Shown: positions 3,133 to 46,563, numbered from the stretch's first letter. The stretch is DNA of 46,563 nucleotides from Candidatus Woesearchaeota archaeon (GCA_016935175.1 JAFGRK010000002.1:1-46563); one strand, 5' to 3'. The notes: a model not told the origin generated them from the sequence alone. Numbers and translations: made by a program.

Positions 3133-3206
3133 GACAGCCCAGAAACCATTAGGTTGAGTTTAAAAATCTTTCTTATAAAAAAGAAGCCATTATTCTAAAA
3201 AAAGGA

Positions 3207-3677: not shown

Positions 3678-3683
3678 TTTTTT

Positions 3684-4742: not shown

Positions 4743-4843
4743 CCAGCCCCCTAAAAAACCAAAACCCTAAAATTGAATTAAAACAAGATTATGTTTCCAC
4801 TAGCGCGTAGGGTTATTTAAAGTTTGCGGTAGTTGAGAATGGC

Positions 4844-5893: not shown

Positions 5894-6007
5894 GGAGCCT
5901 ATTGGAGGCTTTCTCCTTTATAAATCTTTCGGTTTTTTAACCACTTAGAAGTGACAAATATACTAAAATCCACATTATCACAGTATATATAGTGTCATAT
6001 TATAGTG

Positions 6008-22935: not shown

Positions 22936-23042
22936 GCATCCCACGCTAAACTTCCCCCTCATTTCTCAAAATAAAATTCGGGTTTAATCTCCTTTCCACA
23001 TCTTTCTTACATCGAAGAGCGATTCAGCATCCCTTCTTGCTG

Positions 23043-24452
23043 TTAGCTCTTCTTGGCCTGCTTGCCGTCATCCTTCTTGACTTCCGCGGCATCCTCTGCG
23101 TCAGGCAGCTTCTTGCCGAGGAAATCCGGAAGCTGCAGGCCGGCGACTTCCATGATGCTGGCCAGCGGAGGGATGGACTTCACGATGCCAGAGATGAACT
23201 TGGCCGTGATAGGGGTTCCGTCGCCGTTGCCTCCGCCCATGTTGTCCCAGACAACGATCTTGCCGAAGTCGATGTTCTTGATGGCGTCGGCGTTGATGGT
23301 AGCGAGCTCCTTCATCTGCTCGATGATGAGCATGGTGGCAGCGGCCTTGGGATCTCCCCCGACAGAATCAACCAGCTTCTTGAAGCCCTCTGCCTTCTTC
23401 TCGAGGATGGCGAGGATGCCCTGGGCCTGGCCTTCCATCTCGCGCTGAACCTTGAGACCCTGCCCCATGCCTTCCTGCTCCAGGCGGATCTTCTCAGCCT
23501 CAGCTTCGTTCCTGATTTTCTCCTTCTGGAGCTCAGCAGGGACAACGATATTGATGGACTCAGAGACCTTTTCCCTTTCCCTACGCGCAGCCTCAGCTTT
23601 TTGCTCGGCCACATAAGCTTCTTCCAAGGCCTTGGCAGCGTTGACCTTCTCGGCGCTCACAGCCAGCTTGTCGGCCTCAGCCACCTTTTCCCGGCGCTCA
23701 GCATTGGACTGCGCGATCTTGACCTTGGACTTGTTCTCGCCCTCGACGGCCGTGGCATCGGCAGAAGCGACGTTGATGCGCTCAATCTTCTTGGCATCAG
23801 CCTGCCCTGTGGCGCCGTCTCTCTCCTTCTCGGCGACGTCGACGCGTGCCTGCTGGATTGCGTTAGCAGCAGCTTTCTTGCCCAGGGCCTCAATGTACCC
23901 GCTTTCGTCCGTGATGTCCTTGATGTTGACGTTGATGAGCTTCAGGCCCAGCTTCTTCAGCTCGTTCTCAACGTTGTCCTGGACTTTCTTCTCGAAAATC
24001 TCGCGATCGGTGTTGATCTCCTCGATGTCCATCGTGGCCACTGTGGTCCTGAGCTGGCCGTAGATGATCTCCTCGGCATTCTTTTCGATCTCCGGCCTCT
24101 TCATGCTCAGGAGGCGGGATGCAGCCAACTGCATTATCTCAGGCTCAGTGGAGATGGCAATCGTGAACCTGGAAGGCACATTGATGCGGATATTCTGCTT
24201 GGAGAGCGCGTTCTTCAGGTCGATATCGATGGTCATGGGTGTGAGATCCAGGAAGCCATAGTCCTGAATCATAGGCCAGATGAACTTGGCTCCTCCGTGC
24301 TGGCACTTGCCGGCTTGCTTGCCACCGATCTTTCCCCAGACGACCAGGATCTTGTCAGAAGGGCACCTCTTGTATCGCGCCATGGCGACCAGGAAGGTGA
24401 CGAAAGCCATGACTACAAGAGCTGCGACCAGATACAACCAAGATAAGCTCAT
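23043..24452 (-). CDS. Flotillin (SPFH/Band-7 domain, FloT/YqiK-like)
   Basis: 469 aa. It has an N-terminal TM, an SPFH domain, then a long Ala/Glu/Lys-rich coiled coil (EAEKIRLEQEG, AEQKAEAARREREK). Confidence 0.9.
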   Translation of the reverse strand: MSLSWLYLVAALVVMAFVTFLVAMARYKRCPSDKILVVWGKIGGKQAGKCQHGGAKFIWPMIQDYGFLDLTPMTIDIDLKNALSKQNIRINVPSRFTIAISTEPEIMQLAASRLLSMKRPEIEKNAEEIIYGQLRTTVATMDIEEINTDREIFEKKVQDNVENELKKLGLKLINVNIKDITDESGYIEALGKKAAANAIQQARVDVAEKERDGATGQADAKKIERINVASADATAVEGENKSKVKIAQSNAERREKVAEADKLAVSAEKVNAAKALEEAYVAEQKAEAARREREKVSESINIVVPAELQKEKIRNEAEAEKIRLEQEGMGQGLKVQREMEGQAQGILAILEKKAEGFKKLVDSVGGDPKAAATMLIIEQMKELATINADAIKNIDFGKIVVWDNMGGGNGDGTPITAKFISGIVKSIPPLASIMEVAGLQLPDFLGKKLPDAEDAAEVKKDDGKQAKKS

Positions 24453-24552
24453 TCAATTTCTCCTTGTTGATGAATTTTTTTGCCAGTTAGCAATGGTAAA
24501 ACTGTTTCTAGCAAATCGCCACGAAGTTTTTACTCCTTGTGCTCCTCCTTTC

Positions 24553-25218
24553 CTATGTGTTGAGAGAGGTCACGATGAGCGTCTTTCCGCCGATGATCCC
24601 TGTGATCTTGCACTTCTCGTAAGGGTGAAGGGTGGTTTCGCCCTTGGTCATCGCGTCAAAATCCATGAGCCTTCCCTGGATCTTAACCTCGACCTTGCCA
24701 GTGCCCTTCATCTCTCCGTCGATGCGGATGGTCACAGTAGCCTCTTGGCCAACGGCGTTCTGGATGTTGACTGTGCCGTCATCTTGGAGCTTGGAAAGCA
24801 AGCCCAGGATAGCCATGTTGATGACGACAAACCCAAAGCCGAAGGCCAAAGCCAGAATCACAGACCAGGCATCTGCCAGTCCAGAGCCCTTACAGGCAAT
24901 GCCTGACCATCCGAGCCCCACGAAGAACGATATCAGGTTGCGGATAGTGAGGTATTGCAGAATCGAGCTGTATCCTCCGCTGTCATCATGGCTGCCATGG
25001 GCGTCATGACCGTGAGCATCGCTGATGCTGCTGTCACTGATGCCCTCGTGGGAACCTGAGAATCCATCGTGGCCATCAAAGCCCCCGACATCAGTGTCAT
25101 GATGGCCCATGCCGACCAGGAAAAGGATGAACTGGATCAGGAAAAGAAGGCTTGCGATTAGCGCTGATCCCCAGAAGAATTGGAGAATAGGCTCCAATCC
25201 ATTCCACCACTCATTCAT
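24553..25218 (-). CDS. NfeD-like membrane protein (flotillin-associated; OB-fold C-terminus) with His/Asp/Gly-rich insert
   Basis: 221 aa. It has TM helices and a C-terminal beta-rich domain (TVTIRIDGEMKGTGKVEVKIQGRLMDF) typical of short NfeD. It is upstream of and co-directional with flotillin, as in yuaF-floT. Confidence 0.7.
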   Translation of the reverse strand: MNEWWNGLEPILQFFWGSALIASLLFLIQFILFLVGMGHHDTDVGGFDGHDGFSGSHEGISDSSISDAHGHDAHGSHDDSGGYSSILQYLTIRNLISFFVGLGWSGIACKGSGLADAWSVILALAFGFGFVVINMAILGLLSKLQDDGTVNIQNAVGQEATVTIRIDGEMKGTGKVEVKIQGRLMDFDAMTKGETTLHPYEKCKITGIIGGKTLIVTSLNT

Positions 25219-25438
25219 TAGGTTCTCCTTTTAAGAGTGTTTTTTCCATCGGCCTAAGGAAGAAAGACAGAACTATCATAGCCCTTAGCGTTCTTCCCTT
25301 CTAATCACCCTCAATTTTTCCTTCTTGCCCTAAAGCTCCTTTCAAACACTAGATTATTGTCACGTAATCATCTTTAGTGTTATTATTGGATTGCTTTCTC
25401 ACATTAAGAAAGCCCTCTCCCTTCCTCGGCTCGTTTGG

Positions 25439-25663
25439 CTACGTCTTGATAGTGGACAGGTCCACGCCTTGCCTGAGGACACGGCACATCTCAGAGCTGC
25501 AGAACTTGATGTCTTCCATGACCTGGATGAACATGAGGGCTGTGGGCCTGAACTTGTAGGCGTGGATGTACCTGAGCAGGTGCCTTGCAGCTTCCTTGTT
25601 CACGCCAGGCATGTCGACAGCGAGCAATGAACCAATCTCCCCTTGCGAAAGACGCCTAAGCAT
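25439..25663 (-). CDS. Small hypothetical protein, possibly helix-hairpin-helix-like
   Basis: 74 aa with an SD AAGGAGG 8 nt upstream. A weak HhH-like pattern (EIGSLLAVDMPGVNKEAARHLLRYI) is present. Confidence 0.45.
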   Translation of the reverse strand: MLRRLSQGEIGSLLAVDMPGVNKEAARHLLRYIHAYKFRPTALMFIQVMEDIKFCSSEMCRVLRQGVDLSTIKT

Positions 25664-25737
25664 GATGTTGCCTCCTTTTCTCTTTTTGGATTATCTATCT
25701 AAACAACGCAGCGATGAGTCGCGCCAGTCATTAAGCT

Positions 25738-26211
25738 TCAGCTTCCCTGCTGCTTCTTGGCTGATTGCAGGATGCTGACGAGGTTCTTGCCTTCCAGCTT
25801 GTTCTTTTCTAGGGCCTTCTGCTTGAGCTCCCTGATCTTGCCTTCCAGGGCCTTCTTGAGCCTCTTGAAACCATCGGTGTCATTGAGGATATCATCCTCG
25901 CAGTCGTACTCCTTCTGATCACCGATGCTGATGGAGAGGTAATAAGCCTTGTCGGGCTCAGGTTCAGTTGGCCTGAAAGGGGAGTCGGTGATGAAGGAGA
26001 GCTTGATGATCGTGACCTCTTGCCCCATAGGAGGTGTGTCCTCGGTCAGCTTGAACTCCACAGCTGCCCAGAACTTGCCTTCGATGGAGTCGCCTGCTGG
26101 CTTGAACTCCCACTTAGGGCCGGGGTTCTCCAGGATGTCAGAGAAGAGGTTGCCGATGAGATCGAGCTGATCCCTGTCGAAGAGCGAGATTTTTTTTTTC
26201 TCTTTGCGCAA
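25738..26211 (-). CDS. Hypothetical protein with C-terminal coiled coil
   Basis: 157 aa, no recognisable domain. Confidence 0.5.
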   Translation of the reverse strand: MRKEKKKISLFDRDQLDLIGNLFSDILENPGPKWEFKPAGDSIEGKFWAAVEFKLTEDTPPMGQEVTIIKLSFITDSPFRPTEPEPDKAYYLSISIGDQKEYDCEDDILNDTDGFKRLKKALEGKIRELKQKALEKNKLEGKNLVSILQSAKKQQGS

Positions 26212-26340
26212 TGTGGTTTTCCTCCTTGTAGATTATTTATAACAAAAAAAGAAAGGGCTTACTTGGCCTCTGCTTTTTTTTAGAGCATTAACTTTTCAGC
26301 CCTTCTCTTGGAAAACTGTGCAGGCCTCTTTTTCTGGCTC

Positions 26341-27399
26341 TTACCTTGGAGCTACCAGGACCAAGGCTTCCAGGATGAAAATAGCACCGATGTCCAAAGC
26401 TTCATTCTGGATGTACTCAACTGCGAGCTTCATCCTGTCTAAGAAGACTTGTGCAATGCTTTGCGACGGCCCGCGAGGATGGTGAGGAATCTGGTTGGGA
26501 TAGGCTTGGTTGATCTCAGCGAGCATTCCTGAGATGAGCCTTGCTCCTTCCTGGAATTTGCCCTGCTTGAAAAGCTCCTTGATAGGCAATAGTTGGTCCA
26601 CAAAGCGCTGCTCTAGCATCACGAACTTGGGCTTGAGCTCAAGGATGGCGTCTATGAGCAATTCTGCTCCTTGGCTATGGTTGCCTTGCCTGAACTGCTC
26701 CATGCCTTCCATGATGAAAGCCCTGTGTGCGCCTTGGAAATCTCCAGGGTTCTTGTCAGGAGGCTGGCCTGGCCTATCGCTGGGAAACCTCTTGCGAGGA
26801 GGGCGAGGATGCTCTTTCTCCCATTGCTGGCGCAGATCTTCTGCTTTGCTGATGTGCTTTGAGAACTTCTGCCTGGCTGCTTCCAGCTTTTTCTCTGCGA
26901 TGGGAATGTAGTGGTTGATGTCCTTCTCAGCCTCTGCTCCTGTCACATCTAATGTGGCCTTGCCCTTGGTCATCTCGACTTTGAAGCTCGGAGCAGCTTT
27001 CTCGCCCGGCCTCTGCCTTTCTCTCGTGATCTCGTAGCGCTTGTTGCCTTCTCTTACCCAGACCTTCTCGACGCCCATCATCTGGTTGTACTGCACGCCG
27101 AAGCGCAAGGTTTTCAGGTTCTTGAGCAGGAAGATGCTCTTGTATTCGTGCAGGGCTTGACCTGTGTGGTGCCTGCCTAAGCCCTGGGCGTACACGATGG
27201 ACAAGGCCTTGAATGGCTCTGTCTTGGTGATCCTGAGCCCGATGGGAGCCTTGCTCCTCTCCTGGTAGTTGATGGTCGTTCTGGCCTTGGTGAGAAGCAG
27301 GTAGGCTGCGATCAGGGTGGCGCATATGCTGGCGATGATGATAAGCCAAGCTTTGCCTTTCCTGGGCAAAGGCTGATTGATGGTTGCGGTATCGTTCAT
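26341..27399 (-). CDS. Membrane-anchored hypothetical protein (single N-terminal TM)
   Basis: I place the start at the internal Met (MNDTATINQ..., ATG at 27397-27399), preceded by GGAG 9 nt upstream. The longer track ORF (to 27609) would overlap the upstream permease by 185 nt. Confidence 0.55.
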   Translation of the reverse strand: MNDTATINQPLPRKGKAWLIIIASICATLIAAYLLLTKARTTINYQERSKAPIGLRITKTEPFKALSIVYAQGLGRHHTGQALHEYKSIFLLKNLKTLRFGVQYNQMMGVEKVWVREGNKRYEITRERQRPGEKAAPSFKVEMTKGKATLDVTGAEAEKDINHYIPIAEKKLEAARQKFSKHISKAEDLRQQWEKEHPRPPRKRFPSDRPGQPPDKNPGDFQGAHRAFIMEGMEQFRQGNHSQGAELLIDAILELKPKFVMLEQRFVDQLLPIKELFKQGKFQEGARLISGMLAEINQAYPNQIPHHPRGPSQSIAQVFLDRMKLAVEYIQNEALDIGAIFILEALVLVAPR

Positions 27400-27424
27400 G
27401 TTGTTTCTCCTTTTGTGATGCGCC

Positions 27425-28675
27425 TTACTCGTACCTGAGCGCTTCGATAGGGTCAAGCCTTGAAGCCTTGCGCGCAGGGTAGAAGCCGAAGAACACTCCG
27501 ACTGCGACTGAGAATCCGAAAGCCAGGAAGATGGAGCTAGGAGATACGATGGTGGTGATGGTGGCGAACATTGGTATGAAGTGGAGTAGCTTGGAGACTG
27601 CGAAGCCAAAGCCTATGCCTATTAATCCTCCTGTTACGCTGAGCACTATGGCTTCAAAGAGGAACTGGATGAGGATGTCCTCTTCCTGGCCGCCCACTGC
27701 CATCCTGATGCCTATCTCCCTGATGCGCTCGGTGACTGACACCAGCATGATGTTCATGATGCCGATGCCACCGACGAGCAATGAGATGGAGGCTATGCTT
27801 CCTAGCAGGATGGTGAAGATGTTCTGCGACTCTGCAGCGCTCTCTGCGATGTCTGCCATGTTGCGCACAGAAAAATTGTCAGCTTGGCCTGGCTGGACTC
27901 TGTTGTACTCGCGCATTAGCGTCTCAACTTCTCTCTGGGCAGCGTCAGTGGAAGAGGCGCTGTAAGCAGCCATCTGGATTTCCTGCAGCTGGGCATTGGC
28001 GCCGATAATCCTAGTGGATACAGTGGTGTAAGGCGCTAGTATCAGGTCATCCCTGCTGCCGAACCCTCCTGACTGTCCCTTGGCCCTGAGTACCCCTATG
28101 ACTTCGAAAACCACAGTCTTGATCCTGAGGATTTGGCCTATGGGGTCGTCGTCTGGGAAGATCTTGGCGACTGTGTCAGCTCCGAGCACGCAAACCCTTG
28201 CCCCTTCTTCTACTTCTTTCTGGGTGAAGAACCTGCTGCCAGAGTAGGTGTAGTCCAGGTTCCAGTTGCCTATGATTTCATAGTTCTCGTTCACTCCCTG
28301 GATTGAGGTGTTCCAGTTCTTGTTGCCGAACACGACCTGGGCCCTGGTCTGGTAGAGGGGTGTGATGTACTGCACGCTCGGGCATCTCTGCTTGATGAGA
28401 TCTACTAGCTCGAGCTTCAAGGGCAGGCTTCCTGCTCCGCTCTGAACCCCTCCTGGGCCCCTGAAACTGCCTGACCTGAGGCTGAGGTTGTTGGTGCCCA
28501 TGGCTTCGAACCTGGACTGGACAGCAGCCTTGGCGCCTGCGCCGATGCTCACCATTGCAATGACTGCCCCGACGCCGATGATAATGCCAAGCATAGTGAG
28601 AGCTGTGCGCATCTTGTTGCGGGTGAGAGCCCTGAGCGAGAGCCTGAAAATCCTTAGCACTCTCATTGGCTTCAT
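27425..28675 (-). CDS. ABC transporter permease, MacB/FtsX type (N-terminal TM, periplasmic core domain, C-terminal FtsX 3-TM bundle)
   Basis: 416 aa with the architecture described. Its start overlaps the upstream ATPase stop. Confidence 0.85.
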   Translation of the reverse strand: MKPMRVLRIFRLSLRALTRNKMRTALTMLGIIIGVGAVIAMVSIGAGAKAAVQSRFEAMGTNNLSLRSGSFRGPGGVQSGAGSLPLKLELVDLIKQRCPSVQYITPLYQTRAQVVFGNKNWNTSIQGVNENYEIIGNWNLDYTYSGSRFFTQKEVEEGARVCVLGADTVAKIFPDDDPIGQILRIKTVVFEVIGVLRAKGQSGGFGSRDDLILAPYTTVSTRIIGANAQLQEIQMAAYSASSTDAAQREVETLMREYNRVQPGQADNFSVRNMADIAESAAESQNIFTILLGSIASISLLVGGIGIMNIMLVSVTERIREIGIRMAVGGQEEDILIQFLFEAIVLSVTGGLIGIGFGFAVSKLLHFIPMFATITTIVSPSSIFLAFGFSVAVGVFFGFYPARKASRLDPIEALRYE

Positions 28676-29388
28676 CAGCGTTCTCCTCTCTTGCTTAGGT
28701 CCCTGGTGATTTCCTCGCTTTCGATGAGCCCGTCCTTGATGTGTATGCGCCTGTTGGCATAGTCCGCGATGTCAGGTTCGTGAGTGACCAGGATGATGGT
28801 GATGCCCTGCTTGTTAAGGCTGGTGAAGAGGCTCATGATCTCAATGCTGGTCTTGGAGTCCAGGTTGCCTGTGGGCTCATCAGCCATCAAGACAATGGGG
28901 TTGTTGACAAGTGAGCGTGCGATGGCTACGCGCTGCATTTCTCCGCCAGAGATCTGGTTGGTCTTGTGCGTCTCCCTTCCCTTGAGCCCGACCATGGCAA
29001 GCTTCTCATAAGCTACTTGCCTGGCTTTCTTGCTGGGCACGTCAGCATAGAGCATGGGAAGCTCAACATTCTCCAATGCAGTGGTGCGGGTGAGCAGGTT
29101 GAAGCTCTGGAAGACGAATCCGAACTTCTTGTTGCGAAGCGTGGCGAGCTGCCTTCGCGTGTAGTTGGATATGTCTTTCCCCTGGAAGAAATATTTTCCT
29201 GAAGTGGGGCGGTCAAGGCATCCCAGGATGTTCATCAGCGTGGACTTGCCAGAGCCTGAAGGGCCCATGATGGCGATGAAGTCCCCTTCCTCGATCTCGT
29301 AGCTGATGCCATCGAGAGCCCTGACCACGACGTCGCTGCTGATAGGGTAGATACGCTTGATGTCCTTGAGCTCTATGATGCGGCTCAT
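28675..29388 (-). CDS. ABC transporter ATP-binding protein (MacB/LolD-like)
   Basis: 237 aa with Walker [10 protein letters not shown], signature [13 protein letters not shown], and Walker [13 protein letters not shown]. Confidence 0.9.
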
Positions 29389-29453
29389 GGCGATTCCTCC
29401 TTTGCTTTCCCTTTGCAGGGATTAGTTTTGTGTTTCATCTATGCTCAGGCTCC

Positions 29454-30716
29454 TTAGCGCCTGACTCCGCCCATGCCTGGGATCTGAGACGGCTGCTGGG
29501 ATTGGGTGGTTTGCTTAGCAGGGTTGAGCCCTACAATGACCAGGTCTCCTTCCTTTAGCTCTCCGCTCAGCACTTCTTTGACTTCAGTCTTGGTGCTGTC
29601 AGCTACGCCGGTCCTGACACTGACTGGGGCAGGATTGCCTGAGCTGTCCAGTTTCCAGACCGTGCCGATATCATCAGCTTGCTGAGGCTTGGCTTTGGCT
29701 TTAGCTGAAGCAGAGCCAGCTTGCTTTTTCTCAACAGCCTTGCCTGCTGCTTGCTGTGTAGGGGTGAACCTTAGGGCAGCTCCAGGCACTAGCAATGCAC
29801 CCTTGGCTTCTGCTGAGATGATGGTGACAGTTGCTGTCATGCCAGGCATGAGGGCGCCGTCAGAATTCTCAACGTGGATGATTGCCGGATAAGTTACCAC
29901 GTTGGAAGTGGATTCAGATTTCAGGCGCTTCTGAATAACCTTGCCAGTAAAGGTCCTCCTAGGATAAGCAGATACTGTGAATTGCACGTTCTGGCCAGGC
30001 TCCACCTTGCCGATATCTGTCTCATCAACATTGCACGCTAACTGCATCTTGCTCAGGTCATTGGCGATCTCGTAGAGCACAGGAGTCTGCATGCCAGAGG
30101 TGACAGTCTGCCCTACATTCACAGCCCTGTTAATGACAATGCCATCGATGGGAGAGCGGATGACTGTATGGGTCAGGTCGACCTTGGCTGCCTCGAGCTG
30201 GGCCTCTGACTGCTTCAGGCGCGCATCTGCGCTTTGCACGTCTGCCTCTGAGTTCTGGTAGGTGATCTCAGCAGCCTCAAGCTCTTCCACAGAGAGAAGC
30301 TCCTTGTCAAACAACTGCTTGGAGCGATTGTACTTGATCTTGGCATTGTCCCTGGTGAGCTTGGCCTTATCCAGCGCAGTCTTGGAAATAAGGTAGTTGG
30401 CTTCCTGCTGCCTGATCTGCTGGTTGATGCTTTCCTGGTCGAGCTCTGCGAGCTTGTCACCCTTCTTAACCTTGTCGTTGAAGTCAGCGTACAATGAAAT
30501 GATCTTGCCAGAAACTTGGCTTCCGACTTGCACCAGGGTGATGGCTGACAAGGTGCCGGAAGTCACGACCTGTAACCTGACGTCGCCGATTGTGACAGCC
30601 TCGGTCCTGTAGGTTGCAGCCTCCTCCTTCTTGGGCTTGTTGAAGAATAAGAGGTAAGCAGCTACAACGGCCAGGATGATGACGATGGAGACAGAGACTT
30701 TCTTGCTGATTTTCAT
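29454..30716 (-). CDS. Periplasmic adaptor / membrane-fusion protein (HlyD/MacA family)
   Basis: 420 aa. It has an N-terminal TM, coiled-coil hairpin, lipoyl-like and beta-barrel regions, and a Gln/Pro-rich C-terminus. Confidence 0.8.
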   Translation of the reverse strand: MKISKKVSVSIVIILAVVAAYLLFFNKPKKEEAATYRTEAVTIGDVRLQVVTSGTLSAITLVQVGSQVSGKIISLYADFNDKVKKGDKLAELDQESINQQIRQQEANYLISKTALDKAKLTRDNAKIKYNRSKQLFDKELLSVEELEAAEITYQNSEADVQSADARLKQSEAQLEAAKVDLTHTVIRSPIDGIVINRAVNVGQTVTSGMQTPVLYEIANDLSKMQLACNVDETDIGKVEPGQNVQFTVSAYPRRTFTGKVIQKRLKSESTSNVVTYPAIIHVENSDGALMPGMTATVTIISAEAKGALLVPGAALRFTPTQQAAGKAVEKKQAGSASAKAKAKPQQADDIGTVWKLDSSGNPAPVSVRTGVADSTKTEVKEVLSGELKEGDLVIVGLNPAKQTTQSQQPSQIPGMGGVRR

Positions 30717-30778
30717 GATATTCCTCCTTAAAGGCTTAGGATTTTTATATTAGCGAAAGCGTATATGTAAACCAAGAT

Positions 30779-30818
30779 GCTTAGTAAAGCTTAGTAAATT
30801 AGTAAAGCTTGGTAAAGC
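30779..30818. repeat. Four tandem ~10-bp direct repeats (GCTTAGTAAA-like) in the 300-bp leader of the efflux operon
   Basis: The sequence is gcttagtaaa gcttagtaaa ttagtaaa gcttggtaaa, about 65-100 bp upstream of the adaptor-gene start. It is operator-like. Confidence 0.5.
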
Positions 30819-36532: not shown

Positions 36533-38311
36533 CTATGCTCTCCTTGAACGAGACTCTTTGGCTGAGCTATTCTTCCTGAGCATTTTCCTGAGCTCCTTTT
36601 CCTGCTGCTTGGCTTCCTTCTCTCTCCTCTTCCTGATAGCCTCCTCAAGCTTCTTCCTGTTCTGCTCCCTTTTCCTCTCCCACTTCATCAGGGCTTCCCT
36701 TCGTTTCCTCAGCTCTTTTTCCTGATCGCTCTCTGCTCTCTCTTGAGGCTTCTTAGGCTCGGTATTTTCATCGGGGCTGGAGTCGTTTTGCCGCTTCATT
36801 GAGATTCTGAAAAGAAAGCCTCTTCTCTCTTTCTTCTCGCTGCCAGGATAGGTGAGCACTGGCCTCCTGTCATAGATGCTCAGCTTAGGATTAGTTAGCT
36901 CTGGGGTTGCAGGGAGAACCTGGGTGTCTTCCAGCTCTTCTTTTTTTAGCTCAGGCTCCGGGGTTGCTTCGGGTGTTGTCTCATCATTAGGGGTAGGAAC
37001 TAGCGTATCCTCTTCCTTAAGAGCTTCCTCGATGTCCTTGGAGAGATTGTCATCCTCAGTAAAGGTTAAGTTAGTGATAGCGCTGGGAAGGATGGTAGGA
37101 GTTGATGGGGTTTCAGGCTCTTCTGGTGCTTTCTCTTGCACTGACTCCTCATTAGGAAGGACTTCACTAGCGAGATTACCTGCAGAGGGAGCATCATGGT
37201 TCTTGAGCATTCCATTGATGCCTGCTTTTAGGTCATCAGTGGCTTTTTGCATTTCCTTATCTAGCTCTTCATCGCTAGGCAGAATGCTCGTGATTGGAAG
37301 CGGAAGAACTGGCGGCAGTTGTATACGATTGGCAGGAGATTCAGCTTCTTGTTCATCATCTTCAGCATTAGGAGCTGGCTCTGGAATGTCAGGGATGATC
37401 CGGGTTTCTTCTTTTGCTTCTTCCTCAATATGTTCTTGTTCAGGCTGATCCTCAGTAGGCACTTCCCTAAGAGGAATAACAGCAAGAGTAGATGTAGGAA
37501 GAAGAATAGGATCCTTGGGCTGCTCAGCAGCTTGCTCTGTATGATTTCCCTGAGCTTTAGACTCATCTGCCTCTTCAAGCTCATCATCTTCATCATATAC
37601 CTTAGGCAGGTTGAGCCTGGAGATGTCATTGCCAGCCCAGACATTGCCACACTTAGGGCAGACAAAGACGATTATGAAAAGATCTCTTTCCAGCTGGTTG
37701 TCATAAAGGATATTCGCGCTTATTTCCCTGTTGAAGTCCTTGAAAAGGTTGTTCCACTTGGTAAGGAATGAGTGGTCGCCGCACCTGACATCCCTTCCTA
37801 AGAAATCTTGCTTGACATAGAACTGGGTGCGAGGGCTGAGGTTCTCCTTTTTGACCTTGCTGAGCAGCAAGTGCTTGTTAAGGTCAGTTAGCTTGACTTC
37901 CTCTTCAGGCTCAATTGGCTTAGGCTTACTATCAAGCTTAGCTGCTGCCTGGCATCCATTTATGTAGTTGATCAATGATTGGCTAAGTGAGTCAAGCTCT
38001 TTCTTCTTGAACTCCAACAAGGTGCCCTTGACATCCCTCTTGGCGTCTTCTTGAAAAATGCTCAGCCGATCGTCGATGTCATCTTTGATGCATTGGAGGC
38101 TTCGGCCCATTAACTCCTTGACAGCTTCCTCTGCGCTTTCATGGGAGCTTACCTTGACGTGCTTCTTAACGTGCTTTTTCATGGAACGCCACAGGATAGT
38201 TCCGAACAGGAATCCGATAAGAAAAGGGATGACCAAGGTCCTGACTTCCTCATAGCTCCAGACCTCTTGAAAGAACCCAAGGATAGCGTTGAGTGCTACC
38301 TCGAAATCCAT
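36533..38311 (-). CDS. Large hypothetical membrane protein: N-terminal TM, zinc ribbon, acidic Pro/Glu-rich low-complexity linker, basic Lys/Arg/Glu coiled-coil C-terminus
   Basis: 592 aa. The start is placed at MDFEVALN (ATG at 38309-38311, GGAG SD) rather than the longer ORF. Confidence 0.6.
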   Translation of the reverse strand: MDFEVALNAILGFFQEVWSYEEVRTLVIPFLIGFLFGTILWRSMKKHVKKHVKVSSHESAEEAVKELMGRSLQCIKDDIDDRLSIFQEDAKRDVKGTLLEFKKKELDSLSQSLINYINGCQAAAKLDSKPKPIEPEEEVKLTDLNKHLLLSKVKKENLSPRTQFYVKQDFLGRDVRCGDHSFLTKWNNLFKDFNREISANILYDNQLERDLFIIVFVCPKCGNVWAGNDISRLNLPKVYDEDDELEEADESKAQGNHTEQAAEQPKDPILLPTSTLAVIPLREVPTEDQPEQEHIEEEAKEETRIIPDIPEPAPNAEDDEQEAESPANRIQLPPVLPLPITSILPSDEELDKEMQKATDDLKAGINGMLKNHDAPSAGNLASEVLPNEESVQEKAPEEPETPSTPTILPSAITNLTFTEDDNLSKDIEEALKEEDTLVPTPNDETTPEATPEPELKKEELEDTQVLPATPELTNPKLSIYDRRPVLTYPGSEKKERRGFLFRISMKRQNDSSPDENTEPKKPQERAESDQEKELRKRREALMKWERKREQNRKKLEEAIRKRREKEAKQQEKELRKMLRKNSSAKESRSRRA

Positions 38312-38516
38312 GGTTAAACTCCTTTCATCCTTATTGATGTGCATGATGATACTGTTTATGTTAAGAAGAATTAATAGTGAATGAAGCATAAATCATTCTA
38401 TTTATCTGAAAGCCTGCCTTTGGCTGTTATATGCGGGGAAAGGCGCCTTGCACAGGCCTGCCTTAGCTTCTCGACAGCAAAGCGCCTGAAAAACAGCTTG
38501 CAATCCAGGCAAAAAG

Positions 38517-42683: not shown

Positions 42684-43298
42684 TCAAACAGGTTCTTGTG
42701 AGAACTCTGAGATTTGGGTTTTACGGTTACGTAGAAAAGCGATTATGGCTACGCTTAAGTTTCCAAGAAAGCCGTTGACAAATGGGTACAGCAGGGGAAG
42801 CAGCCCTTGGTAGTTAAGGATGTTGGAAGCTACAAGCAGTGAATAGGCTAGAGCGCTTATTGCCCATGAAAGGGGTTTTTCTCTGAGGGTTCCTTTAAGT
42901 AGTCCTTCCAGGGTAGGCCACCATGCTACAAGGAGTGAGATCTGGAGTACGATATTGGTTTGCTGGTTGTTGCGTGTGATGAACCAGTAGGTGAAGCTGA
43001 TAAGTGCGAAAACCATGGTGATGATGCCGCTTTTGCCGATTGGGCCGAATTTCCTTTTGGTGAACGAGTAGGCAACAAGAAAAAACATTGCTACAGTGAT
43101 GACTATGGGAAGAGTAGTCTTGAACCAGTTTCCTTTTACAACATCGTGGTAAGTGAAGGTGTTAAGAGTGAGTACTGCGAGGGCGATGAGCCAGGTGATT
43201 GGATGAGGTGTTGAGCCGCCTTGCTTGATTTGCCTGAAATAGATAAAGGGGACGGGTAAAAAGATGATGCCTGATAAGAGTCCTAATAGGTCGCTCAT
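42684..43298 (-). CDS. Hypothetical polytopic membrane protein (first gene of the array)
   Basis: 204 aa. Confidence 0.55.
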   Translation of the reverse strand: MSDLLGLLSGIIFLPVPFIYFRQIKQGGSTPHPITWLIALAVLTLNTFTYHDVVKGNWFKTTLPIVITVAMFFLVAYSFTKRKFGPIGKSGIITMVFALISFTYWFITRNNQQTNIVLQISLLVAWWPTLEGLLKGTLREKPLSWAISALAYSLLVASNILNYQGLLPLLYPFVNGFLGNLSVAIIAFLRNRKTQISEFSQEPV

Positions 43299-43385
43299 TG
43301 TTTTTTTTCCTTTCTTTGATGTTTGGTTTAAAGAAATAAAAAGAAGAAGTTTTGAAAATCAAAAATCCAAAATTACGTATTTCAA

Positions 43386-43560
43386 GAGTTTCCGGGTTTA
43401 TCCGTGAAGAATTCACTTAAATAAAGGTTTTAGATGTAAGTAAAACTAAGAAGAGGTCCGATTTGTTTTCGTTTCCGAAAGCCTGATTCTGAGGTTTTCT
43501 GGGTTTTCCGGTCACAAAAAAGCTTTTGTTTAATGGGTTTTCCGCTTGGGTTTTTAGGTC
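43386..43560. repeat. Cluster of at least 5 GGTTTTCC(G)-type direct repeats (iteron-like)
   Basis: GGGTTTTCCG is identical at 43501-43510 and 43535-43544. Variants lie at 43388-43400, 43465-43480 and 43491-43500. Confidence 0.55.
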
Positions 43561-43739
43561 CTTGGCAAAAAATTCCTGTTTTGTCTGTAAAGCTTTTGTC
43601 GGGTGTGCTATATTTCAATCCGCTGTGGGGTTGAGATATTTGTTTTGGTTTTGTTTGTATGTTTTAGGTTTGTTCTATGTTGTGTGTGTTTGTTGTGTGA
43701 TATAAGTGAATATGATTTTGTGAAATGTGAATGTGAGGT

Positions 43740-45509
43740 TTAAGCTGTCACGCTAGCCGCTACGGCAGGCATGAGCAGTTTCTTCCATCCTTTCTCATTC
43801 TTCTCTTCCTTTACTTGTATGAGCTGCTTCTTGATGAGCGAGTCCTTTAGGGCATTGCCTTTTCTTGCGCTTAGCCCCAGTTTTGCATAGGCCTGGCTCA
43901 CGCTTAGCTCTTGGCTCTTCACCAGCTCTAGGAATGCGTTCTCCTCCCCTGTGAGATTATCAACCACTACTTCGTGGAAGGTTTTAGGAGCTTCATCAAT
44001 GTGGATCCTTTTTAGCTCTGAGGCAGTGGTGTTCACCCCGCTCTTGAAATAGATTTTTCTCAAGCCTTCCATCTCTTCATTGATTTTCTTCTCTTCTGTG
44101 CTATTATTTATTGCTTTCTTGAGAAGGCAGGTCCTGATGTAGGCCTTCATTCTTTGGATTACATAATCATTCTCCACATTCTCTTTCTTCAATGGGATGT
44201 ATGGCACTTTGATCATGAATGGGTCATTGTACCTCTCTGCAAGCCTCACAACTGCCTGGCCTACGTCGAGCATTGAGAAATAATTCCTCTTGTCCCTTAG
44301 CTGGGTGAGGGTGCTTATCACTTCCACGTCCTGGGGCAGTATCTGCTGGAAAGCCACAATGCAGGCGCTGTTGCCTACGACTGTCTCTGACAGCTTTGAG
44401 ATGTGCTGGTCAAGGCAGATAAGGCTTTCTCCGTACTCTCTCATCTCCCTGTATATCATGTCTGTGACTGTCTCCCTCATGAAGCTAGGCCTCTCCCTCA
44501 GGAAGATGTTATGGGCTTCATCAACTATGATGGCATGCTCAAACTCATCAGCTGTCATGTTAAGGTTCTTTTTCATCTTGTAGATATATGTGAGCAGGTA
44601 TTCGCAGAAGAACTTCTTCTGTACTGTGTTGAGCGAGTAGAGCTCAAATACTACTCTCTTATCCATTATCTCTTCGACTGTCATCTCCTCTGTCCCTTTG
44701 GTGCAAAGGCATTTTCCATAATCTCCAAAGGTGAGCATGTGGGCGATCCTGACAGCAGTAGTGAGCCATTCAGTCTCCCTCCTGTTCATCCTGCTCTCAT
44801 TCTCTTTCTCAAGAAGCCTGTCATATATCTGCCTCCAGGTAGGATAGTTTTCTGAGCCTTGGTACACCTTGAAGTCCTTGAAGGCCTGGTCAAGGGTCTC
44901 TGCCAGTATCTTGGCTGTGCCATGGCTTGCAGTGAAGCTCTCAAGGATGACGTCTGTGAGTATGCTTATCCATTCCTTTGGCGGCACTCCTTTTGGTGGC
45001 CTGTTGATGTTGACCTTGAAGCCGTTGCTTATAGTCTCATTGCCTACAGTAAAAAGCAATATGTCCTGGTCTATGAGCATAAGCGGCCTGAAGCTTTTCT
45101 TCCAGTCCATTATCAGGAACGGCTTGTTCTTGACTATGAAGTTCCTTATCAGTTGATAGGCAAGGGTGGTCTTTCCTGAGCCGCTCATGCCTGTTATGCA
45201 CATATGCCTTTGCCAGTCATGCTCTCTCATGTTGAAGGAGTACAGGTCGTTGTTGGCATAGCTGATTATGCCTATAGGGTATTCCCCTTTCACCATCTCC
45301 TTTGTAGGGGGCTCCAGGAGTATCTGGTCTTTTAGCACTGCATGGCTTATGTACTTGATGTAGAGCGCGTAGATTATGTTGGCTATCTGCTTTTTCTTCT
45401 CAAGCTCCTCTGCCATGTTGTAGTTCATGAAGAGCTGGTCCATTTTCTCCCCGAGTATGGGCCTGAGCTTCCTGCTCATTTCCTCGATGGTGATTGGGTG
45501 CTGCATCAT
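43740..45509 (-). CDS. HerA/FtsK/VirB4-superfamily P-loop ATPase (DUF87-like) with C-terminal winged-helix-like domain
   Basis: 589 aa with Walker A CITGMSGSGKTT, FLIMDWKKSF (equivalent to the DPKGE position), Walker B AIIVDEAHNIF, and a C-terminal HTH-like LSVSQAYAKLGLSARKGNALKDSLIKKQLI. Confidence 0.75.
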   Translation of the reverse strand: MMQHPITIEEMSRKLRPILGEKMDQLFMNYNMAEELEKKKQIANIIYALYIKYISHAVLKDQILLEPPTKEMVKGEYPIGIISYANNDLYSFNMREHDWQRHMCITGMSGSGKTTLAYQLIRNFIVKNKPFLIMDWKKSFRPLMLIDQDILLFTVGNETISNGFKVNINRPPKGVPPKEWISILTDVILESFTASHGTAKILAETLDQAFKDFKVYQGSENYPTWRQIYDRLLEKENESRMNRRETEWLTTAVRIAHMLTFGDYGKCLCTKGTEEMTVEEIMDKRVVFELYSLNTVQKKFFCEYLLTYIYKMKKNLNMTADEFEHAIIVDEAHNIFLRERPSFMRETVTDMIYREMREYGESLICLDQHISKLSETVVGNSACIVAFQQILPQDVEVISTLTQLRDKRNYFSMLDVGQAVVRLAERYNDPFMIKVPYIPLKKENVENDYVIQRMKAYIRTCLLKKAINNSTEEKKINEEMEGLRKIYFKSGVNTTASELKRIHIDEAPKTFHEVVVDNLTGEENAFLELVKSQELSVSQAYAKLGLSARKGNALKDSLIKKQLIQVKEEKNEKGWKKLLMPAVAASVTA

Positions 45510-45542: not shown

Positions 45543-46001
45543 CTAAAGGTCAACCATGCTTTCGAGCACGTTGAAGTTGTCTTTCTTGTCCTTGAACTCC
45601 CTTAGATGGTCCCTTAGCTCCTTTTTCAGGTTCGAGACGTCCCTCCAGGCATTGAGCTTTTCTTGTGTCTTGGCCTGCTCTAGCTCGGTTACTTTTCTCT
45701 TGAGCTCTACTACCTCTTCGGGCTTCATCTCTTCTTTCTTCTCATTCAAGAAATTGGTTATGCTGAGTATCATCTTGTCCATGTCCACAAAGATCTCGTC
45801 CCTTAACTTCTGCCTTTCATCTATCAGGACTTGGATGTCGTTTATGACTTCCTTTATTGAATCGAGCTTCTTGTTTTCCATGTCCTTGAAGATGTATTCT
45901 ACTTCTAGCTTGTTGTCTTCCCTTTTCTTCTTCATTAGGACATAGCAGTCATCCAGCTCTTGTATGAATCCTTGTAGCAGGTTGGAATATTTTGCATCCA
46001 T
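45543..46001 (-). CDS. Coiled-coil hypothetical protein co-transcribed with the ATPase
   Basis: 152 aa with heptad-rich Lys/Glu sequence. It lies 33 bp upstream of the ATPase. Confidence 0.55.
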   Translation of the reverse strand: MDAKYSNLLQGFIQELDDCYVLMKKKREDNKLEVEYIFKDMENKKLDSIKEVINDIQVLIDERQKLRDEIFVDMDKMILSITNFLNEKKEEMKPEEVVELKRKVTELEQAKTQEKLNAWRDVSNLKKELRDHLREFKDKKDNFNVLESMVDL

Positions 46002-46073: not shown

Positions 46074-46086
46074 TTTTATTTATAAA
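46074..46086 (-). promoter_or_regulatory. Archaeal-type TATA box (minus strand CTTTATAAATAAAAG) upstream of the coiled-coil/ATPase operon
   Basis: It sits about 75 bp upstream of the ATG at 46001. A perfect palindrome TTTTTTCCGGAAAAA (46095-46109) lies immediately upstream of it. Confidence 0.45.
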
Positions 46087-46563
46087 GCTTTCGATTTTTT
46101 CCGGAAAAACTACGGAAAATGGCGAATTCAGGGTTTTTGAGGATTTGAAAGGAAGCGAAATTCTTCCTGCTTCTCTCAGTACTTTTTCAGCTTTAACTGT
46201 GCTTCTTTCACTAAACCCACGGATCTGCTAGCTGTGCCTGCCTGATGTGAGCCGCACAAGAGCTGGCCTATAGAGTTTGGAAATGCGTTTTTCACCGTTT
46301 TCCAGGCTGGAAAATGCAGAATAAAAAGCGCCAGCGGCAGGATTTTCATCAACCCTATAAAGGCTGCTTTGAACCTGCGATTCCTTGCGGAACCGGTTTG
46401 CTCTGGAGCATTCGAGACCGGCGCAATACCCCTATGCGACGCTGGCACTTAGCAAAAATGAAACACTTATAAGTTAAAAAAGGTTTCTGTTGAATAAATG
46501 GTAATAGCCACATACCTTGTTATTCTCTTCAGCTTTGCCTTCATAGCATTCTACCTTATCAAC

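Follow-up and report, generated by a model that had tools for sequence, protein, structure and literature searches.

A conserved intergenic spacer with clustered sequence boxes beside a HerA-fold ATPase gene as a candidate control region of a chromosomal locus in DPANN archaea

The DPANN archaea consist mostly of uncultured symbionts with reduced genomes, and few of the conserved genes specific to the lineage have been characterised. What role is played by the 441-bp spacer (43299–43739) that separates such a gene from an array of small membrane-protein genes was explored in a 46,563-nt stretch of DNA from Candidatus Woesearchaeota archaeon (the window). The original prediction for this spacer had favoured a plasmid or viral origin, partition site or packaging signal, with an array promoter or operator or a CA-rich minus-strand 3'-UTR as its fallback. 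The coordinates and gene context that it gave were right. The stop codon of a 589-aa ATPase gene (43740–45509) was at 43740, and the ATG of a 204-aa polytopic membrane protein, the first gene of the variable array (42684–43298), was at 43298; these genes and the rest of the array were all on the minus strand. The ATPase, with a HerA/VirB4-type P-loop fold and a predicted C-terminal winged helix, was the conserved anchor gene of the locus, and a 152-aa helical-hairpin (coiled-coil) partner (45543–46001, minus strand), the product of the first gene of the ATPase operon, accompanied it in all loci. The order of the locus was the helical-hairpin gene, the ATPase–winged-helix gene, the spacer and the hypervariable array, the gene content of which was a shuffled mosaic from locus to locus. 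The locus was chromosomal and was conserved on Woesearchaeota/Nanoarchaeia contigs of up to 1 Mb. The first array gene had its ATG and a purine-rich Shine–Dalgarno-like stretch at 43296–43313 (minus strand), and GGAGG-type Shine–Dalgarno sequences were seen in orthologues. A scan for tRNA and tmRNA found none, and no description of the locus was found in the literature on DPANN or Woesearchaeota with HerA, DUF87 or VirB4.

The same modules occurred in the same order in 13 orthologous spacers. The conserved fraction of the spacer was 0.82–0.88 in L008 and 0.70–0.77 in L009, whereas that of the four-fold degenerate sites of the ATPase gene was 0.60 and 0.47, respectively. Key parts of the spacer persisted at 45–54% protein identity. 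Conservation ended right after the last box cluster (F), where gene content diverged; the boxes mark the exact boundary between conserved DNA and rapidly exchanged genes. The open reading frames of the spacer (62, 59 and 84 aa) were rejected as genes: they were no more conserved than the nucleotide identity would produce, with a peptide identity of 60% with L008 against a nucleotide identity of 84–88%.

Read on the minus strand from the ATPase stop, the spacer began with a G-free, A/C-rich tract (43624–43739; a C-free GT tract on the top strand), which is the putative 3'-UTR of the ATPase operon. The top-strand composition of 43624–43742 was A21, C1, G36 and T61, i.e., one C in 119 nt, exactly as had been claimed. 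The next-lowest 119-nt window in the contig held 10 C, and this tract, the compositional extreme of the window, also contained its two longest runs without C (69 and 51 nt). The depletion of G after the ATPase stop was kept in close orthologues, in most of which the first G occurred at 28–91 nt; L021 and L024 were the exceptions to this distance. TCA(C/T)A heptad-like repeats were found at 43696–43736 (minus strand), including a conserved block, ATCATATTCAC-N4-ATCACA, that was still recognisable in loci with 45–54% ATPase identity. In 14 loci, 40 copies of TCA(C/T)A were observed against 13.7 expected, with gaps of 6–8 or 13–15 nt. The next module was a conserved hairpin or palindrome, hairpin B (43610–43639, not assigned to a strand), with the sequence ATATCTCAA [CCCCACAGCGGA] TTGAAATAT. 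The paired cells of hairpin B amounted to 82–86%, a level reached by 0 of 500 shuffles, and slid controls gave 27–53%. Conserved block C of the alignments (AGCACACCC(A/G)AC-CAAGCTTTA, 43585–43609, minus strand) was followed by the first oligo-T run (T6) after the ATPase stop (43564–43576, minus strand), and most orthologues had a T4–T6 run at the equivalent position. Archaeal termination takes place at oligo-T, and this run is the putative terminator at which the transcript of the ATPase operon probably ends.

The remaining modules were all on the minus strand. Cluster D (43491–43544) contained three short boxes. Box D1 (CGGAAAACCC, 43535–43544) was placed 33–35 bp from D2 in 10 loci, and D2 and D3 (CGGAAAACCC-AGAAAACCTC, 43491–43510), which were 9 bp apart and preceded a small hairpin or T-run, contained the columns that varied least when the spacers were aligned. 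Extra degenerate boxes (CGGAAACGAAAAC, 43455–43477) were common only to the window and its closest relative, L008. A BRE/TATA-like element (CTAAAACC-TTTATTTAAG, 43416–43433), the putative array promoter, was located between clusters D and F and was compared with the promoters of the organism (cGAAAg-TTTATAWA). Orthologues had a TATA-like or A-rich element at the matching alignment position; the spacer CTAAAACCTTTATTTAAG was good in the window, L001 and L003 and weak in L009, L011 and L017. A conserved GAATTCTTCA block (43405–43414) separated the TATA-like element from cluster F. At the operon promoter, too, GAATTC was seen ahead of the boxes. Cluster F (CGGATAAACC-CGGAAACTCT-TGAAATACGT, 43375–43404) comprised three boxes 9–10 bp apart. 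The TATA centre was 16–19 nt upstream of F1 in the window, L001 and L003; hence, the predicted start site of the array was inside cluster F. Cluster D was ~100–170 bp upstream of the array promoter.

The window contained GGGTTTTCCG exactly twice, at the predicted positions 43501 and 43535, which are 34 bp from each other. The further variants listed in the prediction were uneven: 43491–43500 had one mismatch, whereas those at 43388 and 43465 were looser (2–3 bases off). According to the orthologous loci, the loose variants were genuine members of the two conserved box clusters. On the gene strand, the box was CGGAAAACC, a new sequence with the core CGGAAAAC (GTGAAATACC in distant relatives), and boxes were arranged in triplets with a spacing of 9–11 bp, approximately one helical turn. 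In the window alone, the enrichment was modest. GGTTTTCC with at most one mismatch had 3 matches in the 441-bp spacer and 53 in the other 46 kb (~six-fold enrichment), and the window had 3 exact copies of GGTTTTCC where 1.3 were expected. Across loci, the box distribution was locus-specific: the density of YGGAAAAHB was 5.7/kb in the spacers, 5.5/kb in the operon promoter zone, which took no part in defining the motif, and 0.23/kb in the remaining 167 kb (~25-fold enrichment; Poisson P ~1e-36). Moreover, 47 of the 48 spacer boxes shared one orientation; such uniformity may point to a constraint imposed by transcription or by a directional machine. No further box cluster was found when the opposite end of the variable island was searched.

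The operon promoter (GAATTCGCC, 46076–46129, minus strand) contained two inverted boxes, ATTTTCCG and TTTTTCCG, 11 bp apart, along with an overlapping forward copy, and these boxes abutted a textbook BRE/TATA (CGAAAGCTTTATAAATAA). This layout was present in 11 of the 12 orthologous loci with sequence reaching there. A distal triplet upstream of the operon promoter (46278–46315, minus strand), ATTTTCCA-gcc-TGGAAAAC-gg-TGAAAAAC, consisted of a palindrome and a tandem copy and was conserved in L001, L009, L021, L010 and L024. The boxes had a fixed place relative to BRE/TATA across orthologues at both promoters, and tandem boxes again adjoined TATA-like elements in the distant loci. Boxes occurred upstream of TATA in both orientations, indicating that recognition would take place at the DNA level rather than at the RNA level.

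The proteins of the operon were evaluated as candidates for this recognition. The ATPase matched Pfam DUF87 (4e-08), and its Walker A and Walker B motifs were intact. The best PDB matches of its AlphaFold model (pLDDT 85) were HerA 4d2i (E 3.5e-15), HerA–NurA, DndH-C and VirB4. More than 850 homologues were found, and those with names were Woesearchaeota or Nanoarchaeota; the ATPase was 70–90% identical across many MAGs. The isolated C-terminal 146 aa matched no Pfam family, and thus the winged helix (residues ~521–581) is known solely from the structure model. The recognition helix and wing (LGLSARKGN...EEKNEKGWKK) were almost invariant among homologues, and in the longer homologues the winged helix followed a long low-complexity linker. 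No other module encoded by the conserved operon was predicted to bind DNA in a sequence-specific manner. The partner protein was rejected as a DNA binder: its model was a hairpin of two long antiparallel helices with no significant PDB match (best E 0.04) and no DNA-binding fold. PADLOC gave generic HerA matches only. Identity with the Ced DNA-import ATPases was rejected as well. CedB and CedD have transmembrane and VirB4-like N-terminal domains (bioRxiv 10.1101/2024.09.27.615246), whereas the similarity of the ATPase to the CedD profile was weak (59 bits against an NCBIfam cut-off of 600), and an N-terminal transmembrane segment or membrane anchor was absent from every ATPase homologue inspected.

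With a probability of roughly 0.55, we take the spacer to be a composite control region that is conserved as part of a chromosomal locus specific to DPANN. The fallback of the original prediction is favoured over its first choice by the BRE/TATA-like element between the box clusters and by the position of F over the putative start. The ATPase operon would end in a G-free, A/C-rich 3'-UTR with TCACA heptad-like repeats, the hairpin and the first oligo-T run. The upstream cluster of three boxes (D) would then precede a BRE/TATA-like array promoter, oriented towards the array, and the three phased F boxes would lie over the start of array transcription. The boxes are predicted to be DNA-level binding sites for a locus-specific protein. 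The near-invariant recognition helix and wing match the conserved GAAA..CC core of the box, which makes the tethered winged helix of the neighbouring ATPase the most likely candidate; judged from the model, the boxes are probably bound by this domain. The same boxes, inverted or palindromic, lie directly against the BRE/TATA of the ATPase operon. Since the two promoters share them, occupancy of the boxes would tie the regulation of the operon by its own product to that of the variable array, which would probably be repressed at F.

Several points weigh against such a control region. A HerA-fold hexameric motor is an atypical transcription factor, and an unlinked regulator could recognise the boxes in its place. 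The box core resembles the BRE of the organism (CGAAAG/AC), and several loci have only a weak TATA-like element, as given above. Simple occlusion leaves the role of cluster D at its upstream distance unexplained, and an operator needs neither extreme G depletion nor heptad repeats. The co-orientation of the spacer boxes also counts here, with its hint of a directional machine.

The box arrays could instead act in cis as sites at which the HerA-fold hexameric motor is loaded or recognises DNA, comparable with TraB–clt, FtsK–KOPS or a plasmid centromere. Winged helices on their tethers would dock the ring on GGAAAAC arrays flanking the operon, the motor would translocate or segregate DNA, and the variable small membrane proteins would form an envelope conduit; promoter control would be a by-product, as at parC/parS operators. 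The repeats resemble binding sites for a winged-helix ATPase, and hence a loading or centromere-like role deserves weight, although we regard it as unlikely. The HerA/VirB4 translocase fold with both Walker motifs, the weak CedD similarity, the long linker of the winged helix in longer homologues and the presence of nearly co-oriented boxes on both flanks of the operon are consistent with this role. Furthermore, short direct repeats directly downstream of the ATPase gene were followed by small, poorly conserved membrane proteins, a gene order that matches traB–clt–spd (PMC4447253), and the WATCACW-like heptads recall pSM19035 parS (PMC9499535). Similar to a partition centromere, short-repeat arrays flank the operon, one of them at the operon promoter; similar to TraB–clt, an FtsK/HerA-superfamily ATPase with a predicted C-terminal DNA-recognition domain adjoins clustered short direct repeats. 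However, the NTPase has a HerA/VirB4 fold, the partner has no DNA-binding fold, and no ParA-, ParM- or TubZ-type NTPase was found. The locus is chromosomal, without mobile-element hallmarks or context genes and without relatives in viral or plasmid collections; the ATPase is not membrane-anchored, and its CedD score is far under the family cut-off. A position fixed relative to BRE/TATA at two promoters would also be needless for a pure loading site.

A lineage-wide chromosomal DPANN module, acting like TraB/clt/Spd or as a new kind of centromere with motor, box docking and conduit, is an improbable form of the same idea. A soluble HerA-fold hexamer with six flexibly tethered winged helices would dock on GGAAAAC box triplets, four of which (distal, proximal, D and F) would bracket the operon. 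The motor would move or organise double-stranded DNA, the membrane proteins would provide a conduit to host or sister cells, and the G-free tract with its heptads would serve this machine as another array for protein binding.

It is quite improbable that the spacer works as RNA, either non-coding or as a functional UTR. The RNA could be a G-free, unstructured, A/C-rich gene-strand transcript that serves as a protein-binding platform, or a + strand antisense transcript running from a quasi-symmetric TATA (43419–43430) to hairpin B and the U-rich GT tract. Covariation backs hairpin B, and the composition is strongly strand-asymmetric. Most mismatches in hairpin B are A.C when read on the gene strand and G.U when read on the + strand (9 vs 2 wobble cells, a count that is suggestive only). 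On the + strand, hairpin B is followed by T4–T8 runs in most loci and resembles a terminator, and the promoter/terminator scan likewise reported it as a terminator-like hairpin with a T-rich tail. In one subgroup, another hairpin showed compensatory changes (CTGC/GCAG, GTGC/GCAC, TTGC/GCAA and TCTGT/ACAGA). By contrast, RNAalifold returned essentially no consensus structure on either strand (2–4 trivial pairs), and single-sequence folds of both strands were no better than shuffles (z about −1.1 and −1.2). These null global results led to the dropping of a structured non-coding RNA, with the exception of the local hairpins. Transcription of a + strand RNA would need to pass many T4–T5 runs, and the boxes upstream of TATA in both orientations favour DNA recognition. 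The bacterial-type promoter/terminator scan gave counts not above shuffles and just two + strand hairpins in the spacer. No match to Rfam 15 reached the gathering score in the whole window, and at E<=1 over 43150–43850 the single match had 15 bits against a cut-off of 86, with no Rfam family to be assigned.

A replication origin, in which the boxes would be iteron- or ORB-like repeats, the A-rich strand-asymmetric tract the unwinding element and the ATPase–winged-helix protein the initiator, is very improbable. The direct repeats in the spacer, the inverted repeats at the gene's own promoter (as in iteron plasmids), the A+T content of the neighbouring tract (70%) and the C-terminal winged helix of the neighbouring ATPase would suit it. 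However, the units are 10 bp rather than 17–22-bp iterons, no ORB dyad match was found in the spacer, and the ATPase fold is neither that of an AAA+ initiator nor that of an SF3 helicase. No Orc1/Cdc6, MCM or Rep gene was present among the scanned ORFs of the window. The genes on either side are co-directional, and in L011 an ORF inserted between the ATPase gene and the tract leaves the element intact. The cumulative GC skew of the 46.5-kb window, in which the contig ends 2.8 kb beyond the spacer, had no turning point at the spacer apart from a local bump from the C-poor tract itself. The plasmid or viral origin, partition or packaging site of the original prediction was not borne out, because the locus is chromosomal, the same boxes recur at the ATPase operon promoter, and no relatives were found in plasmid or viral collections: PLSDB gave no DNA match, IMG/VR gave no relatives even by family profile, and phage tblastn gave remote TraC-like matches only. 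An integron-like cassette array was also rejected, with no integrase and with inter-gene gaps too short for attC sites. Finally, chance low-complexity intergenic sequence without function, which would suit the modest enrichment inside the window alone, is refuted by module conservation in 13 loci beyond that of synonymous sites and down to 45–54% protein identity, and by the ~25-fold box density ratio.

The composite control region was compared with known systems. Iteron origins carry three or more direct repeats of ~17–22 bp next to rep on an autonomous replicon, where Rep regulates its own gene; archaeal oriC has ORB/mini-ORB dyads flanking an AT-rich unwinding element, usually by orc1/cdc6. 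The locus shares with them the direct repeats by an ATPase/winged-helix gene, the inverted promoter copies and the adjacent A-rich tract. It differs in repeat length and sequence, in having no initiator-family gene among the scanned ORFs and no skew switch within the window, in being chromosomal and single, and in its ATPase, which is HerA rather than AAA+ or Rep. In pSM19035, omega binds at parS, where contiguous non-palindromic 7-bp WATCACW repeats extend over promoter regions by an NTPase operon (PMC9499535). The (A/T)TCACA units of the present tract, ~7 bp apart (e.g., AATCACAAATCACAA in L018), are similar, but they are fewer and degenerate and come after a stop codon instead of at a promoter. 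Moreover, omega is a ribbon-helix-helix protein that works with ParA on a Firmicute plasmid, whereas neither RHH nor ParA is encoded here; the heptad likeness may serve as a lead only.

In the traB–clt–spd arrangement of Streptomyces conjugative plasmids, the C-terminal domain of TraB recognises clustered 8-bp direct repeats, and small poorly conserved membrane proteins come after them (PMC4447253). The locus likewise combines an FtsK/HerA-superfamily ATPase, adjoining short direct repeats and small variable membrane proteins. TraB is membrane-anchored, plasmid-borne and bacterial, whereas the ATPase here is soluble, chromosomal and archaeal; the boxes are ~10 bp long, unlike the 8-bp clt repeats, and they also occur at the operon promoter, fixed relative to TATA. 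NtrC-type proteins are ring ATPases with a C-terminal DNA-binding domain that use tandem sites ~100–150 bp upstream of the controlled promoter, and cluster D is placed as such sites would be. The NtrC type is AAA+ and works with sigma-54, whereas the present ATPase belongs to the HerA clade; sigma-54 is absent from archaea, and we know of no NtrC-type activator there.

Archaeal regulators of the Lrp, TrmB, Phr and MDR1 types bind just upstream of BRE/TATA or over the start. The boxes of the locus are similarly located directly upstream of BRE/TATA (operon) or over the putative start (F), and their presence at the presumed regulator's own promoter implies autoregulation. They differ from known archaeal promoter-operators in sequence and in their helical-turn-phased triplets, in the third cluster 100–170 bp upstream of the promoter, and in the presumed binder, which is a winged helix on a HerA-fold motor rather than a small dimeric regulator. 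The locus pairs one of the best-conserved DPANN orphan proteins with a hypervariable small membrane-protein island, which is a plausible place for host-interaction functions, and the boxes give the motor its first concrete prediction, namely, a defined sequence at defined positions. Should the boxes be operators, the locus would offer, as far as known, an unusual case for archaea, in which a ring ATPase is joined by a tether to the domain that binds its own operator. Should they be loading sites, the locus would represent a new chromosomal DNA-handling system.

The spacer (43299-43739) is bounded by the stop codon of the ATPase gene (43740-45509, minus strand) and by the start (ATG) of the gene for a 204-aa membrane protein (42684-43298). 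The 589-aa ATPase is identical to an NCBI entry named Candidatus Woesearchaeota archaeon (DPANN). Both flanking genes are on the minus strand; hence, the spacer is to be read on this gene strand, where the repeat noted as GGGTTTTCCG reads CGGAAAACCC and the GT tract is a CA tract. The identical 10-mers at 43501 and 43535 were confirmed as the sole exact copies across 46.5 kb, and the other copies claimed in the original prediction (at least five in all) were looser matches. With at most one mismatch, GGTTTTCC had 3 matches in the spacer versus 53 elsewhere in the window, and 3 exact copies were found versus 1.3 expected, so the repeats on their own were only modestly significant. The C-poor tract was as described: a single C occurred in the 119 nt of 43624-43742, compared with 10 in the next-lowest 119-nt stretch of the contig, and this tract also contained both of the contig's longest C-free runs (69 and 51 nt).

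The spacer was compared among 13 distinct orthologous loci with ATPase identities of 64-90% and six more at 45-54%. The spacers of the closer group were 360-500 nt long, with their modules in the same order on the gene strand. Module A, a G-depleted A/C-rich tract with the block ATCATATTCAC-N4-ATCACA, starts at the ATPase stop codon and is followed by a hairpin (module B) and the block AGCACACCCAACCAAGCTTTAAT (module C), after which a run of T4-T6 mostly occurs. Module D (43491-43544) consists of CGGAAAACCC, a gap of 33-35 bp, and the boxes YGGAAAACCC and GAAAACCY 9 bp apart, often with a T-run after them. Module E is a TCTAAAT or A-rich TATA-like element with GAATTCTTCA, module F (43375-43404) has three boxes (CGGAWARACY-CGGAAASWCT-TGAAAWACGT) and then GATTTGAG, and module G is a Shine-Dalgarno sequence with the ATG. 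The spacer identity was 0.82-0.88 in the orthologous locus L008, compared with 0.60 at four-fold degenerate sites of the ATPase gene, and 0.70-0.77 compared with 0.47 in L009. This conservation stopped abruptly past module F. In L011, on a 570-kb contig, an extra ORF of ~150 aa lies between the ATPase stop and the CA tract (7755-8218), and the complete spacer element is unchanged 3' of it, which indicates that the CA tract belongs to the spacer and not to the stop codon. The distant group retained a TCACA-type motif past the ATPase stop and tandem GTGAAATACC-CTGAAATACG boxes adjoining TATA-like elements.

The distribution of the boxes was evaluated with the degenerate pattern YGGAAAAHB on both strands of 14 loci (~180 kb). 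The spacers contained 36 matches (5.7 per kb), and the 550-bp zone upstream of the helical-hairpin gene, which was not used when the motif was defined, contained another 36 (5.5 per kb), whereas just 38 occurred in the other 167 kb (0.23 per kb). The Poisson probability of the upstream enrichment was ~1e-36. The ATPase operon has its promoter in this zone. At 46076-46129, the window reads GAATTCGCC-ATTTTCCG-tag-TTTTTCCGGAAAAAAT-CGAAAGC-TTTATAAATAA, in which two inverted boxes 11 bp apart and an overlapping forward copy form a palindrome that abuts a BRE/TATA matching the other strong promoters of the organism. A second triplet, ATTTTCCA-gcc-TGGAAAAC-gg-TGAAAAAC, is found ~200 nt farther upstream (46278-46315). 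This layout was repeated in nearly all orthologues, and the box spacing inside clusters was 9-11 bp, approximately one helical turn. Copies lie upstream of the TATA element and in both orientations, indicating that the boxes act at the DNA level. At the operon promoter (GAATTCGCC-ATTTTCCG) as well as at cluster F (43405-43414; GAATTCTTCA-CGGATAAACC), the hexamer GAATTC lies 3-4 nt ahead of the boxes; most orthologues retain it, and it may belong to the recognised site. In three loci of distant relatives (L005, L007 and L013), the operon start has its tandem boxes downstream of TATA, ~2900-3050 nt before the ATPase stop, and they extend into the annotated 5' end of the ORF for the hairpin protein; in L013, for instance, GGAAAAACCCTGAAAAACC encodes NGKNPEKP. 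Either the true start codon is farther downstream, or the boxes are within coding sequence.

The ATPase matched Pfam DUF87 (HerA central domain), and its AlphaFold model from 40 homologues had a pLDDT of 85, with Sulfolobus HerA (E 3.5e-15), HerA-NurA, the DndH C-domain and VirB4 as the top PDB matches. NCBIfam gave sub-threshold matches only, the best named one being the DNA-import ATPase CedD (59 bits versus a cut-off of 600). The last ~70 residues were modelled as a winged helix of three helices and two strands, which longer homologues separate from the motor by a low-complexity linker of up to ~250 residues; no transmembrane segment was present in any homologue inspected. The 152-aa product of the upstream gene (45543-46001) was modelled as a long helical hairpin, for which no structural neighbour was significant. 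This gene pair was kept at all related loci retrieved. In L008, ~3 kb of paralogous ORFs (2424-6001) and, in L017, a MYG1-like exonuclease gene (3039-3977) are inserted between the two genes, and the box-bearing promoter remains with the helical-hairpin gene. More than 850 ATPase homologues were found; the named ones were from Woesearchaeota, Pacearchaeota or Nanoarchaeota, on contigs of up to 1 Mb. IMG/VR yielded no relatives, PLSDB had no match to the spacer, and in a phage collection the ATPase obtained only remote TraC-like matches. Hence, the locus is chromosomal and lineage-wide, and the plasmid or viral setting originally suspected was not borne out.

Between clusters D and F, CTAAAACC-TTTATTTAAG (43416-43433) resembles the local BRE/TATA consensus cGAAAg-TTTATAWA, and the TATA centre is 16-19 nt ahead of the first F box in the window and in the orthologous loci L001 and L003. 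As TATA is usually centred near -26 in archaea, array transcription would start inside cluster F. In archaea, regulators that sit on the start site typically prevent recruitment of RNA polymerase, and sites immediately 5' of BRE can either activate or compete with TFB. The first gene-strand oligo-T run past the ATPase stop is GGAATTTTTTGCC (43564-43576), with comparable runs at the same place in most orthologues. As oligo-T tracts terminate transcription in archaea, the transcript would have a 3'-UTR of ~165 nt consisting of the CA tract, hairpin B and block C. The spacer would then comprise the operon 3'-UTR and terminator, followed by a promoter of the variable array bracketed by operator boxes; as these boxes also occur at the operon promoter, autoregulation of the operon would be coupled to control of the array. 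We assign a probability of roughly 0.55 to this composite control region with the ATPase winged helix as candidate binder. The winged helix appears to be the best candidate; it is the sole predicted sequence-specific DNA-binding module of the conserved pair, and the near invariance of its recognition helix and wing across the family parallels that of the GAAA..CC box core. As this core resembles BRE, an interplay with TFB may exist. The window also encodes a TrmB-family winged-helix regulator (16951-17703), 26 kb away from the spacer; its gene is unlinked to the locus in other genomes, which makes it no obvious candidate.

The array genes encode small, mostly membrane proteins without family assignment. 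Between loci, the array was a shuffled mosaic, its proteins being 32-60% identical or absent even where the ATPase was 90% identical, and the chromosomal flank beyond was conserved. The Ser/Thr kinase-TPR gene (20520-22715) is 21 kb from the ATPase gene in the window versus 1.8 kb in L017 (58% identity), and the orthologue of ORF 17739-19091 is 4.5 kb past the ATPase gene in the orthologous locus L010. Thus, a conserved operon gives way at the spacer to a hypervariable island of 2-20 kb, represented in the window by the same-strand array at 22700-43298. Within it, a GC-rich block (23000-30800; 0.50-0.57 versus 0.42-0.48 elsewhere) may have been horizontally acquired; it contains an SPFH/Band-7 gene together with efflux genes of bacterial type (an HlyD-family fusion protein, MacB/FtsX permeases and an ABC-like ORF). 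The Band-7 ORF (23037-24446, plus strand) is mirrored over its full length by an ORF on the other strand (23043-24452); such mirror ORFs are typical of high-GC DNA. A 618-aa array protein (36533-38389) carries a membrane segment at its N-terminus, a zinc-ribbon-like CPKC motif and a long low-complexity tail that is acidic and rich in proline; it had no family match and no homologue at other loci.

The main alternative is that the motor itself is loaded at, or recognises, the box arrays. Much of the evidence is compatible with it; the arrangement would be a ring ATPase with a C-terminal DNA-recognition domain, clustered direct repeats and small non-conserved membrane proteins. Repeat arrays doubling as operator and centromere are classic in plasmid partition. 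The order of ATPase, repeats and small membrane proteins is that of traB-clt-spd in Streptomyces plasmids (PMC4447253). However, the ATPase lacks a membrane anchor, the context is not that of a mobile element, and the box positions are fixed relative to TATA elements, which weakens this alternative and makes it rather unlikely.

Still less probable is a functional RNA from either strand. Rfam gave nothing, neither strand folded better than shuffled controls, RNAalifold yielded no consensus structure on either, and the spacer held no conserved ORF. Hairpin B (43610-43639) is one real local element: 82-86% of its cells were paired, a value reached by 0 of 500 shuffles and compared with 27-53% in slid controls. 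Its 12-nt loop CCCCACAGCGGA (gene strand) was almost invariant in the window and five orthologous loci (L002, L008, L009, L011 and L017), and the other subgroup differed in its loop and had a further hairpin upstream with compensatory changes. The stem mismatches were mostly A.C on the gene strand, which become G.U on the plus strand (9 versus 2 wobble cells), and T-runs follow there; the hairpin could therefore be the terminator of an antisense transcript, but the wobble asymmetry is only suggestive.

A replication origin, as first suspected, is very unlikely given the 10-bp length of the units, which lack an ORB dyad, the absence of initiator genes from the scanned ORFs of the window, the HerA fold of the ATPase, the co-directional flanking genes and the absence of a skew turning point, the last judged on a short contig only. 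Chance sequence is excluded by the comparative data and has a negligible probability.

The G depletion of the CA tract was kept in the close group except in L021 and L024; the first G mostly occurred 28-91 nt past the stop codon, and A made up ~50%. In the first 90 nt of 14 spacers, TCA(C/T)A occurred 40 times versus 13.7 expected from dinucleotide shuffles, with gaps of 6-8 or 13-15 nt, a heptad-like array. The tract of the orthologous locus L018, AATCACAAATCACAA, is literally the WATCACW heptad of pSM19035 parS (PMC9499535). This likeness is a lead only; the conserved operon does not encode any ribbon-helix-helix protein. No description of the locus emerged from literature searches. Operator boxes in repeated copies are already known from archaeal promoters. 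What is new is the sequence of the boxes and their triplet arrangement on both sides of the operon, the association with a HerA-fold ATPase bearing its own winged helix, the adjoining heptad tract devoid of G, and the location, in DPANN archaea, at the border of a hypervariable island of membrane-protein genes.
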